The position numbers are program-made. Positions 11,002-14,000 of a stretch of DNA of 64,000 bases are shown one piece after another. Each line of letters opens with the position of its first letter. Position 1 is the stretch's first letter. This DNA is from Octopus vulgaris (taxonomy: Eukaryota): the NCBI GenBank assembly GCA_951406725.2, contig OX597842.1, positions 29,698,001 through 29,762,000 on the forward strand, written 5' to 3'.

Positions 11002-14000
11002 GCGGCTGTAATGTATATATAGGTTTTTATGCGTTTAATTGAACACGAGTGTATATTTAATGTAATTGTTAAGTGAATGTCTGTGATGTTTTATGTTTTT
11101 TTCTTCCTTTCAGCCGTAAAATTGATGCAGTGGCCTCCTTAGTTTCCAGGGGAGCAAATGTTAATAAGCAGGACTCAGACGGCAACACACCTCTACATCT
11201 GGCTGTGTGGAACAACTATGAAGATGTAGTCAAAGTCCTGTTAAGTAGCAAAGGAAATAACATTTTACAGGTTAGCGAATACATTTATATTTGTGTATAT
11301 AGATATGTATATATATGTATGTGTGTGTTATATGTATATGATGTATACATACAGTTTAGTGCCCCAAATTTCGTTTCTTCATAACTGATGAATCATATTT
11401 TTTTTAATAAAAGTTGCTGCAAGACTTCCTTTTCTACCCCACAAAAAAACTCACCCTTTCTTTAAATTTTTTTCCCCGACACAAATCCCGCTTTTCGGTT
11501 AAGGGAAATACGAATCTGCAAAAAAATTGGCAAAAATCGGCATTTTTAAATTACCCCCACCCCCATTTCCTTCATTCTTTACTTTTTTCACAATTTTTTT
11601 TTCAGAATTTGCGGAAAAATGCGGAGATGATGATTCGGACAAAAATTTCAAAACATTTCTGTAGTTGGGGTTAGGGTTAGTGTTGGGGGAAAAAAAGTCA
11701 AAGTTGAAGAATTTTGGAGGGGGTGGAAATTCCACTGCCGATTTTTTTGCAATTTTCCCGAACCTCCGAGTCCGAAATCGGGGGGTTTTGGCAAAATAAT
11801 TCTTTGAATAAGCAAATTTAGGTGAAAATGGTGGTGGTGGTGGTGGGGGGACTCTTTTGAAAGTTGCTCATTTCCTTGTGTGAGAGTGTATATATATATA
11901 TATGTGAGAGTGTATATATATATATGTGTGTGTGTTTATATGTATATATGTGTGTGTCTGTGGGTACAGGTATGATATGAACCTCATTTATTTACTCCTC
12001 TCCAACTTCATTCCACCTGTTTATTAATCTGATTCTTTCTCTTTTTTTGAAATTTTTCATTTTTGCGATGCCCCCCCCCCCATCCACTTGACGCCATCTT
12101 TAATGTTTTTATTGTTTATCTTTTTTAGGTCACTCAGCGAAATAATAATGGTCGGACACCTCTACATCTTGCCTCGTATTATGGACACACAGACACAGCT
12201 AAACTTCTCCTACAACAAGATGGCACTGATGTGAGGGTGGTGACCAAATATGGTTCGACACCTCTCCATCTTGCCTGTCAGAATGGACACACAGACACAG
12301 CTAAACTCCTCCTACAACAAGATGGCGCTGATGTGAGGGTGGTGACCAAATATGGTTGCACACCTCTACATCAGGCCTCGTATAATGGACACACAGACAC
12401 AGCTAAACTTCTCCTACAACAGAATGGCACTGATGTGAGGGTGGTGGACAACGCTGGTTGGACACCTCTCCATCTTGCCTCGTATAATGGACACACAGAC
12501 ACAGCTAAACTTCTCCTACAACAAGATGGCACTGATGTGAGGGTGGTGGACAACGATGGTTGGACACCTCTCCATCTTGCCTCGTATAATGGACACACAG
12601 ACACAGCTAAACTTCTCCTACAACAAGATGGCGCTGATGTGAGGGTGGTGACCAACGATGGTTGGACACCTCTACATCTTGCCTGTCAGAATGGACACAC
12701 AGACACAGCTAAACTTCTCCTACAACAAGATGGCACTGATGTGAGGGTGGTGGACAACGCTGGTTGGACACCTCTACATCATGCCTCACGTAATGGACAC
12801 ACAGACACAGCTAAACTTCTCCTACAACAAGATGGCGCTGATGTGAGGGTGGTGGACAACGATGGTTGGACACCTCTACATCATGCCTCGTATAATGGAC
12901 ACACAGACACAGCTAAACTCCTCCTACAACAAGAATGGCACTGATGTGAGGGTGGTGAACAACGATGGTTGGACACCTCTACATCTTGCCTCGTATAATG
13001 GACACACAGACACAGCTAAACTTCTCCTACAACAAGATGGCGCTGATGTGAGGGTGGTGACCAACGATGGTTGGACACCTCTACATCTTGCCTCGTATAA
13101 TGGACACACAGACACAGCTAAACTTCTCCTACAACAGAATGGCACTGATGTGAGGGTGGTGAACAACGATGGTCATACACCTCTCCATCTTGCCTCGTAT
13201 AATGGACACACAGACACAGCTAAACTCCTCCTACAACAGAATGGCACTGATGTGAGGGTGGTGGACAACAGTGGTCATACACCTCTCCATCTTGCCTCGT
13301 ATAATGGACACACAGACACAGCTAAACTTCTCCTACAACAGAATGGCACTGATGTGAGGGTGGTGGACAACGCTGGTTGGACACCTCTACATCATGCCTC
13401 TAATCAAGGACACACAGACACAGCTAAACTCCTCCTACAACAGAATGGCACTGATGTGAGGGTGGTGGACAACGATGGTTGGACACCTCTACATCATGCC
13501 TCTAATCAAGGACACACAGACACAGCTAAACTTCTCCTACAACAAAATGGCATCGATGCCAATAAAGCGGACAATGATGGTGACACTCCTCTCCATCTGG
13601 CAGTTCAAGAGTAAGTCCCCAATGGATTTGGATTATCCAAATCTGTTTCTTTAATGTTTTCAATAACGTTTGTTTTCTTGTTTTGAGTCATTCATGTCAT
13701 AATCCCACCATGGGACGTCGTGCTTCAACTCTCTCTCTCACACTCTAATGACACTGTAACCTACTTCATTAATTAATCATCATAATTATTATTGTTGCTG
13801 TTGTTACCTGACTAGATTCTTTACTTCATCTCATCCTTCGTTACCTCAACGTTACAAGTTCAAATCTTTCCTTTTCTTCTTTTCATTCCATATAAAACAC
13901 CTCACCCCCTCTCTCTTGTAATTTTCCTCTTTCCTCTGACCCTGGGCTAAATACAGAATCATTCCCTTACAGTGTTTAGTTTGATCTCTTTATGTTCCAA

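Follow-up and report, generated by a model that had tools for sequence, protein, structure and literature searches.

What keeps a run of near-identical ankyrin repeats alike in its framework and different at its putative binding face? The question is raised by a locus in Octopus vulgaris (assembly GCA_951406725.2, contig OX597842.1, positions 29,698,001 to 29,762,000, forward strand), a stretch of 64,000 nucleotides that we call the window. It contains a gene whose fourth exon encodes 14 tandem ankyrin units. An initial annotation, made from the DNA alone, had proposed that concerted evolution and diversifying selection generate recognition variants in this exon and had named the product a candidate variable receptor. 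Our own answer, held with moderate confidence, is that the exon 4 array is a variable target-recognition module of an octopus RING/death-domain E3 ligase or adaptor, amplified and homogenised, with its face kept diverse.

The units of the array were delimited by cutting it at two anchor blocks, which code for GHTDTAK and DVRVV:

12129..13610, + strand: exon 4, the ankyrin array exon, with an assembled length of 1482 nucleotides (four lead-in codons, 14 units and a partial 15th repeat)
12141..13569, + strand: the 14 repeat units of 34 codons each (anchor positions, unit print-out and per-codon table)
12141, 12243, 12345, 12447, 12549, 12651 and 12753, + strand: starts of units 1–7
12855, 12958, 13060, 13162, 13264, 13366 and 13468, + strand: starts of units 8–14
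13570..13610, + strand: partial 15th ankyrin repeat (β-turn and helix 1), finished by exon 5 (translation; the paralogs continue alike)

The exon is bordered by an AG acceptor at 12127–12128 and a GT donor at 13611–13612. Tandem Repeats Finder, run on the window, places a repeat of period 102 at 12148–13552 (13.8 copies, 92% matches, score 2265) with zero indels at the rounding of its output. The 21-nucleotide GHTDTAK block occurs exactly 14 times and nowhere else in the window, and the 15-nucleotide DVRVV block exactly 13 times, so that the identity of these blocks in all 14 units and in units 1–13, respectively, is as originally described. The description of 14 full 102 bp repeats in one exon stands for the number of units and the single exon and fails for unit 8, which is 103 bp long. 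Unit 14 has a diverged tail (positions 29–34).

The two open halves of the array match the Pfam ankyrin profile Ank_2 with E values of 2e-92 and 5e-89 (304 and 293 bits against a cut-off of 27.3), and the array is therefore of the ankyrin type (PF00023/PF12796). Other Pfam matches on the array (VWA_3_C, LisH, POLO box and others) were rejected as spurious, as no single stretch of them is significant. By hand count, the residues of units 1–13 differ from the majority residue 42 times over 13 × 34 positions. This corresponds to an identity of about 90% and lies above the value of more than 85% over at least 100 residues by which Dyrka et al. (2014) recognise high internal conservation.

Differences between the units are confined to few positions. 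In units 1–13 of this one genome copy, to which the values below refer unless another scope is given, the per-codon table shows eight variable face positions: 1 (D/T/N), 2 (N/K), 3 (D/A/Y/S/N), 5 (W/H/S/C/R), 10 (L/H/Q), 12 (S/C), 13 (Y/Q/R/N) and 14 (N/Y/Q). The only other amino-acid changes are D/N at position 27 and T/A at position 29, while positions 31–34 are altered in unit 14 only. The table thereby reproduces the list of variable residues given in the initial annotation (β-hairpin, residue before TPLH, helix 1) together with its D/N and T/A toggles. The frequent codon changes of two or three nucleotides that it mentioned are also real, as in TGG/CAT at position 5. Its invariant framework needs a small amendment: 18 codons are identical in DNA across all 14 units, and three framework codons are synonymously dimorphic (Leu8 CTA/CTC, Leu22 CTT/CTC and Gln26 CAA/CAG). 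Positions 2, 3, 5, 13 and 14, which had been named as the concave binding surface of ankyrin repeats, all belong to the set of 10 codons, out of 34, that vary (hypergeometric p = 9e-4).

The same unit is present in three paralogs from O. sinensis, with four copies in protein P0175, seven in P0173 and, in P0176, five clean copies plus one with an out-of-frame tail and one lacking a residue. Compared at the protein level, these paralogs vary at the same positions. When the 30 units of the window and the three paralogs are pooled, the residues at positions 4, 6–9, 11, 15–23 and 25 are invariant, and entropy peaks at position 13 (2.37 bits), followed by 5 (2.14), 3 (2.08), 14 (1.97), 1 (1.50) and 10 (1.18). 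Some face cassettes recur: the helix 1 variants of window units 2/6 and 13/14 are also seen in P0176 and P0175, and the β-turn variant of units 2/3 in P0173. Relatives P0154, P0129, P0131 and P0137 have only two to four mutually diverged 34-residue repeats at the site of the 14 units.

Pairs of units differ by 2–16 nucleotides, on average by about 9 of 102 (699 differences in 78 pairs, summed by hand), and 19 of the 23 variable nucleotide columns fall in nucleotides 1–42 of the unit. The four-gamete test is failed by 34 of the 55 pairs of informative biallelic columns and requires at least five exchanges or recurrences within 102 nucleotides. Such failures are what exchange between units predicts, and the units are mosaics. 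Concerted evolution of the array, as initially claimed, is well supported, since low difference between units, clustering of the variable columns, four-gamete failures and the unit shared with three paralogs all point the same way. Changes at the third base of codon 12 accompany those in codon 13, a pattern suggesting that stretches of several nucleotides are swapped in one event, with diverged units as templates, instead of mutating one base at a time.

Substitution within the units was quantified as pairwise Nei–Gojobori rates of non-synonymous (dN) and synonymous (dS) change and as minimal event counts per codon column. Over the eight face codons dN is 0.36 and dS is 0.25, and over the other 26 codons they are 0.016 and 0.075. 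The pairwise dN/dS of the face amounts to 1.4–2.2. In the event counts, the codons together carry 24 non-synonymous and 8 synonymous events, with 24.9 synonymous sites. Positions 2, 3, 5, 13 and 14 account for 17 non-synonymous events on 13.2 sites. This is 4.0 times the array-wide synonymous level (binomial p = 7e-4) and 5.0 times the synonymous level outside the five positions (p = 3e-4). The framework is under purifying selection and the face carries an excess of replacements.

Several values weigh against a stronger statement. The pairwise dN/dS of the whole unit is 0.91. The five positions carry 2 synonymous events on only 1.8 sites, which brings their local ratio to 1.15, and the eight face codons carry 5 on 4.0 sites, with a local ratio of 0.89. 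Of the two synonymous events at the five positions, one reflects a genuine AAT/AAC change in edge unit 1 and the second stems from path-averaging of multi-nucleotide changes, and the hypervariable codons offer too few sites for an estimate of synonymous change inside them. Positive selection in the strict sense is not proven, and the diversifying selection put forward in the initial annotation is suggested only: it is favoured by the comparison with synonymous change across the array and not by that within the same codons.

These same values are what would be expected of a young neutral amplification, in which slippage or unequal crossing-over multiplied the unit, purifying selection maintains the fold, and the surface drifts near a ratio of 1 so that its diversity is unselected. 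Ankyrin surface positions are moreover of high entropy in ankyrin repeats generally, according to passages of PMC4308713. Such an account is possible but doubtful. Face codons have accumulated 1.1–1.3 non-synonymous events per site, compared with a synonymous density of 0.14 outside the face (26 codons) and 0.32 over the codons as a whole (p = 7e-4 to 5e-5). The invariant codons interleaved with the face (Gly4, Thr6, Pro7, His9 and Ala11) are unchanged in 14 units even at fourfold sites, all 14 face signatures differ from each other (hand count), and in the three paralogs the same positions vary anew with new residues on an identical framework. Selection, rather than relaxed constraint alone, may keep the face diverse.

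The array belongs to a gene of 13 exons on the + strand that extends from an ATG at 5692 to a TGA stop at 36256–36258. It was found with a weak death-domain piece of an open reading frame (ORF) as bait, followed by tblastn of the recovered proteins against the window. Exons were read and searched one by one, each as a separate piece:

5692..5775, + strand: exon 1, with the start codon (tblastn of P0154, P0173 and P0175, residues 1–29/32; GT donor, phase 0)
7376..7527, + strand: exon 2, ankyrin (Pfam Ank_2, E = 1.7e-9; 94% identical to P0173; splice sites)
11114..11270, + strand: exon 3, ankyrin (Pfam Ank, E = 1.6e-11; splice sites; ends in phase 0)
15641..15677, + strand: exon 5, a 37-nucleotide mini-exon (1 + 36 nucleotides) for helix 2 of the 15th repeat
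23917..24129, + strand: exon 6, ankyrin (Pfam Ank, E = 2.8e-7; 97% identical to O. sinensis P0176 and P0140)
26218..26393, + strand: exon 7, last degenerate ankyrin-like repeat and linker (98% identical to P0176; splice phases)
27386..27528, + strand: exon 8, RING finger (Pfam zf-C3HC4_3, E = 6.2e-11; translation)
28378..28428 and 28544..28594, + strand: exons 9 and 10, linker module (Tandem Repeats Finder period of 166; sequence; phases)
29191..29262, + strand: exon 11, linker (tblastn, 86% to P0176; phases)
33037..33108, + strand: exon 12, start of the death domain (tblastn, 92–96% to P0121, P0173 and P0175; GT donor 33109–33110)
36053..36258, + strand: exon 13, rest of the death domain and TGA stop (Pfam Death, E = 0.0021)

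All 12 introns have AG/GT borders and their phases agree at every junction except for one extra base in unit 8. As exon 3 ends in phase 0, it sets the frame that enters the array. At the other end, the ankyrin frame leaves two bases, exon 5 adds one base and 12 codons, and exon 6 begins in phase 0. Exon 5 was located by a scored scan, a strict pattern search having given no match. It has the best BLOSUM62 score (39, next 22) against the corresponding 12 residues of four paralogs, and its AG/GT borders and phases are compatible only with the frame of the 3′ end of the array. Exons 9 and 10 duplicate one 51-nucleotide phase-1 exon, whose product is a 17-residue linker module. By eye, this module is present in about one to six copies among paralogs, and as its copy number differs the linker also varies by exon duplication. 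The region of exons 9 and 10 (28364–28844) has near-identical flanking intron, followed by a 58-nucleotide intronic tandem repeat (4.1 copies, 98% matches), and exons 11 and 12 have borders of the same kind.

The predicted protein consists of about 20 ankyrin repeats (exons 1–7 together), one C3HC4 RING, a short repeated linker and a C-terminal death domain. No Pfam match is obtained with exon 1 of the window or with exon 7 searched alone, and three of the nine family proteins scanned start at a methionine 28 residues before the first ankyrin repeat. The RING scores 42.4 bits against a cut-off of 27, and all eight C3HC4 ligands are present in its translation. Its exon is 98–100% identical to those of the paralogs. 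The closest solved sequences are the RINGs of cIAP1 (E = 9.5e-7) and cIAP2 (E = 3.3e-6), with those of CGRRF1, MYLIP and XIAP also in this group. The death domain is split, and exon 13, which covers positions 23–79 of the 86 in profile PF00531, lacks the first part encoded by exon 12. In full-length relatives the domain reaches 35–45 bits and exceeds the cut-off in five of six and three of three relatives scanned. Its closest solved sequence is the Fas death domain, a weak match (E = 0.0078).

In the nine full or partial family proteins scanned, Pfam reveals neither NACHT, NB-ARC or another NOD module nor MIB/HERC2, ZZ or MIB-repeat domains. A reading of the gene as an NLR was rejected for the absence of a NOD module, and orthology to MIB2 for the absence of its defining N-terminal domains. 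The ankyrin–RING–death-domain protein also has no transmembrane or signal module. To call it a candidate variable receptor was therefore an overstatement, the more so as the exon is out of frame as assembled, and a variable module for substrate recognition in a putative E3 or adaptor protein is a better reading than "receptor".

The family has so far been seen only in Octopus. A search with the death-domain exon yields 51 cluster representatives at E ≤ 1e-3, 24 of them at E ≤ 1e-10. The nine named members among the 51 are all from Octopus (O. sinensis, O. vulgaris and O. bimaculoides), as are all 17 matches to exon 6 (a few organism names are legible only as "[Oct"). Their automatic names are mutually unrelated: E3 ubiquitin-protein ligase MIB2-like, ankyrin repeat protein RF_0381, PP6 regulatory ankyrin repeat subunit B-like, ankyrin-3-like and secG-like. 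The protein collection searched holds no protein identical to the exons of the window. The best matches are O. sinensis P0176 for exons 6–8 (96–98%) and P0175 for exon 13 (94%). The first half of the array was unsuitable as a query among longer proteins, being swamped by long ankyrin proteins with a best identity of 55% and none from a cephalopod.

Against a working protein of this kind stands first of all the array exon itself, which is out of frame as assembled:

12933..12936, + strand: frame break in unit 8, four bases (GAAT) in place of the single codon (GAT or AAT) of all other units

Unit 8 (12855–12957) is 103 nucleotides long, with an anchor spacing from the eighth to the ninth block of 103 instead of 102. 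The incoming frame reaches a TGA at 12942–12944 and the remainder of the array is open only in the next frame, so that two ORFs (12129..12944 and 12847..13614) cross the array. The splice phases demand an exon 4 length of 2 mod 3 (1481 nucleotides), and the assembly has 1482. If the extra base is real, the RING and the death domain are untranslated and this copy is a young pseudogene. O. sinensis P0176 likewise has an out-of-frame stretch and a unit lacking one residue, and the arrays of this family may be either error-prone in assemblies or truly decaying. Further points on this side are that exon 13 alone reaches only 18.6 bits, under the Pfam Death cut-off of 22.6, and that the proposed function rests on domain names only, since the open-access library searched yielded no paper on this Octopus family or on such arrays in molluscs. 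Passages of PMC11463336 deal with ankyrin caspases and not with this family.

Most simply, the frame break would be a consensus or polishing error of the assembly from mixed reads of two haplotypes or units. At this site seven units have CAA-GAT, five have CAG-AAT and unit 14 has CAA-AAT, and CAAGAAT in unit 8 is the column-wise merge of CAAGAT and CAGAAT. The consensus-error reading is favoured by the extra base sitting exactly on the only dimorphic dinucleotide of the unit, by its merged form and by the intactness of all other exons and phases. The base looks unlike a random mutation.

A pseudogene whose translation ends at 12942–12944 and whose variation was inherited from a functional ancestor is for these reasons rather unlikely. 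The break and the stop are in the sequence, the closest O. sinensis gene model has frame trouble in its array too, and the best match to exon 6 in the protein collection is 97% identical and none is identical. Yet the break is the sole defect of the gene: all 12 introns keep AG/GT borders and, at their other junctions, matching phases, the other exons are free of stops, and the RING retains its full set of ligands and its near identity to the paralogs.

In the annotated protein P0176, about 30 residues are an out-of-frame translation of the last array unit and one unit is without a leucine. Because of these residues and the missing leucine, the gene model of this closest relative also has indel trouble in its array. 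Such array exons may in general carry assembly errors that break gene models. As a separate observation on the units, each DVRVV block includes a donor-like GTGAGG, and in the CAG-AAT units a run rich in pyrimidines and closed by CAG is located just upstream. If such sites hypothetically joined a unit to one further along, the frame would be kept (102k − 12 nucleotides) but four additional loop residues would remain, and there is no sign of such splicing.

The assembly could in principle have shaped more than one base, if haplotypes or paralogs had been collapsed or mixed so as to produce the unit number, the unit order or part of the variation. Unit 8 probably contains one error of the consensus type. 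Short reads are known to give faulty assemblies of arrays with high internal conservation, as stated in the abstract of PMC12222747, and as the longest exact repeat between units is only 112 nucleotides, reads of a few hundred bases could be misplaced. An artefact on this scale is nevertheless improbable: independent O. sinensis gene models have several copies of the same unit with the same variable positions, the window is without any N, and the period is exact over 14 units apart from one base.

In an AlphaFold model of the first 271 residues of the array, calculated with a 19-row alignment (predicted local distance difference test, pLDDT, 97.4; predicted template modelling score, pTM, 0.92), helix pairs follow each other with a period of 34, helix 1 comprising unit positions 7–13 and helix 2 positions 17–24. 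The loop or β-turn ahead of helix 1 contains positions 1–5, helix 1 itself positions 10, 12 and 13, and the turn position 14. Superposition of the model on ankyrin-1, ankyrin-B, espin and an extended designed ankyrin repeat protein (DARPin) gives TM-scores of 0.89–0.91 (0.91 for ankyrin-1 and the extended DARPin). Mapping onto the structure thus assigns the variable residues to β-turn, helix 1 and turn, and that they line a concave groove is likely by analogy with the proteins described in parts of PMC4986451 and PMC4308713 rather than from the coordinates.

A single-sequence AlphaFold prediction of eight near-identical units as an all-β solenoid (pLDDT 65) was rejected as an artefact of perfect repeats modelled without an alignment. 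Caution is advisable with single-sequence models of perfect repeats, as 19 aligned rows turned an all-β model of pLDDT 65 into an ankyrin fold of pLDDT 97.

Among solved sequences the array best matches NOMPC (E = 3e-129) and ankyrin-1 (E = 2e-127), and DARPin fusions are also matched. These matches and the superposition on ankyrin-1 would suit a structural array that acts, as in ankyrins and NOMPC, as a spacer, spring or multivalent platform for one conserved partner to whose parts the unit differences correspond, but this is improbable because close paralogs differ in copy number (4, 5–6, 7 and 14, others with only the two to four diverged units) and because face residues reshuffled among paralogs fit poorly with one conserved extended partner.

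The preferred reading, a variable target-recognition module, can be put in mechanistic terms as follows. One 34-residue ankyrin unit would have been amplified to 14 tandem copies within exon 4. Unequal exchange or gene conversion among the units, and probably also among paralogs, would keep the framework identical, namely the TPLH motif, the helix 2 block GHTDTAK-LLL and the DVRVV loop. Residues of the β-turn and of the inner helix 1 would line the concave groove and remain different in every unit, which would create a long groove of about 14 units with eight variable residues each on an invariant scaffold. The RING would recruit an E2 and ubiquitinate partners bound in the groove, and docking of the death domain to others of its kind would couple the protein to death-domain signalling complexes. 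An immune or cell-death role is plausible from the combination of an IAP-type RING with a death domain.

The closest parallel is provided by fungal NLR-like STAND proteins with ankyrin repeats such as Pa_3_8560 and Pa_2_8180 of Podospora anserina, for which passages of Dyrka et al. (2014, PMC4986451) describe repeats more than 85% identical to each other in copy numbers from 7 to above 16, a concave face (inner helix and β-hairpin) that carries the variable and positively selected sites, and inferred concerted evolution with reshuffling within and between family members. The same source, in part together with PMC12222747, reports repeat-number polymorphism in fungal NLR-like proteins with highly internally conserved ANK, TPR or WD repeats, and gives high internal conservation for only 0.8% of metazoan ANK/TPR/WD repeats (PMC4986451). 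The octopus array resembles the fungal ones in internal identity above 85%, varying copy number, variation at the predicted concave face and concerted evolution with reshuffling. It differs by the absence of NACHT or NB-ARC from the protein, by its place ahead of a RING and death domain, by its animal host and by a unit of 34 instead of 33 residues. Copy-number variation is known among paralogs in the octopus case (4, 5–6, 7 and 14) and as polymorphic repeat number in the fungal case. The octopus protein would work like the fungal NLR-like proteins in its sensor part, but as the NOD module is absent it is not an NLR.

Designed libraries offer a second comparison. The DARPin design randomises positions 2, 3, 5, 13, 14 and 33. 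In the ANK-N5C library, positions 2, 3, 5, 10 and 13 of the β-turn and helix 1, which form a continuous binding surface, are randomised according to passages of PMC4308713. All five of these vary in the octopus array, which thus shares with the designed libraries a fixed framework and diversity at positions 2, 3, 5, 10 and 13. Unlike them, the array is natural, it varies at positions 1 and 12 too, it is constant at the position before the next unit, it has one extra loop residue per unit and it consists of 14 internal units instead of the usual two to five.

As in the Mind bomb E3 ligases MIB1 and MIB2, whose name NCBI assigns automatically to many members of the family, a zf-C3HC4_3-type RING comes after the ankyrin repeats. 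MIB1 and MIB2 have N-terminal MIB/HERC2 and ZZ domains and MIB repeats and are not known to have a death domain, whereas in the nine octopus family proteins scanned Pfam reports none of these N-terminal domains or MIB repeats, and there is one RING only and a C-terminal death domain. Ankyrin repeats are combined with a death domain in ANKDD1A/B, ankyrin-1/2/3 and NF-κB p100/p105, and ankyrin-2 entries with PF00531 appear among the distant matches. These share with the octopus protein an ankyrin array and a C-terminal death domain, but in the octopus protein a RING separates the two, and ZU5/UPA and Rel domains are absent. Restriction factors of the TRIM5α type are RING E3 enzymes with a rapidly evolving recognition domain, B30.2. 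The proposed logic is alike in coupling a RING to a fast-changing recognition surface, which in the octopus would be an ankyrin solenoid rather than a B30.2 domain.

A further array is found in a gastropod. Protein P0013 of Babylonia areolata has a STAND NTPase (Pfam nSTAND3, PF20720) and about 14 near-identical 33-residue ankyrin units, which differ mainly at positions 5, 10, 13 and 14 and have a similar helix 2 motif. The array follows a STAND NTPase, has a shorter unit and 54% identity to the window array, and is not of the same family. Since it is a second molluscan array of this kind, set in an NLR-like architecture, such arrays may be wider in molluscs.

We tentatively consider an extension of the target-recognition reading, in which Octopus would possess, independently of fungi, a germline "library" of uniform arrays whose face is diversified by cassette shuffling among units and paralogs, the products being fast-evolving intracellular sensors of non-self or pathogens that ubiquitinate or signal. 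No evidence whatsoever exists for a bolder form, in which the units would be rearranged somatically.

The window holds several other features. Two long direct repeats (18518–19620 and 21762–22819; 99–100% identical, about 3.2 kb apart) flank a 447-codon ORF (19806–21146) without a Pfam match in the intron between exons 5 and 6, and the whole, 18518–22819, looks like a young insertion of the long-terminal-repeat type. A mariner-type transposase fragment (34543–34890; Pfam Transposase_1, E = 2.5e-8) is located in the intron before the last exon. Upstream of the gene are an ORF with DUF7041 (2971–3438; E = 1.6e-25), two ORF pieces with nearly the same translations (889–1433 on the + strand and 1416–1987 on the − strand) that represent an inverted duplication of about 0.5 kb, and a short interstitial telomere-type repeat (TTAGGG × 4.5 at 2525–2551). 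Tandem Repeats Finder also detects three arrays with a period of 84 nucleotides (47415–48906, 59712–60173 and 60991–62372), the translations of which show, by eye, a C2H2 zinc-finger pattern with TGEKP-like linkers. In the first of them, a stop within a linker closes the array.

Repeating a near-identical unit with contact residues that vary strongly is a recognised quick route to new binding specificities that has been documented mainly in fungal NLR-like proteins. The locus described here is a specific example from an animal, with another architecture (ankyrin array, RING and death domain), so far in Octopus only and with differing copy numbers among paralogs. To our knowledge, no variable receptors are known in cephalopod immunity. 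The arrays may be regarded as natural counterparts of DARPin libraries, and for comparative immunologists they would be a testable candidate for fast-evolving intracellular recognition in these animals.

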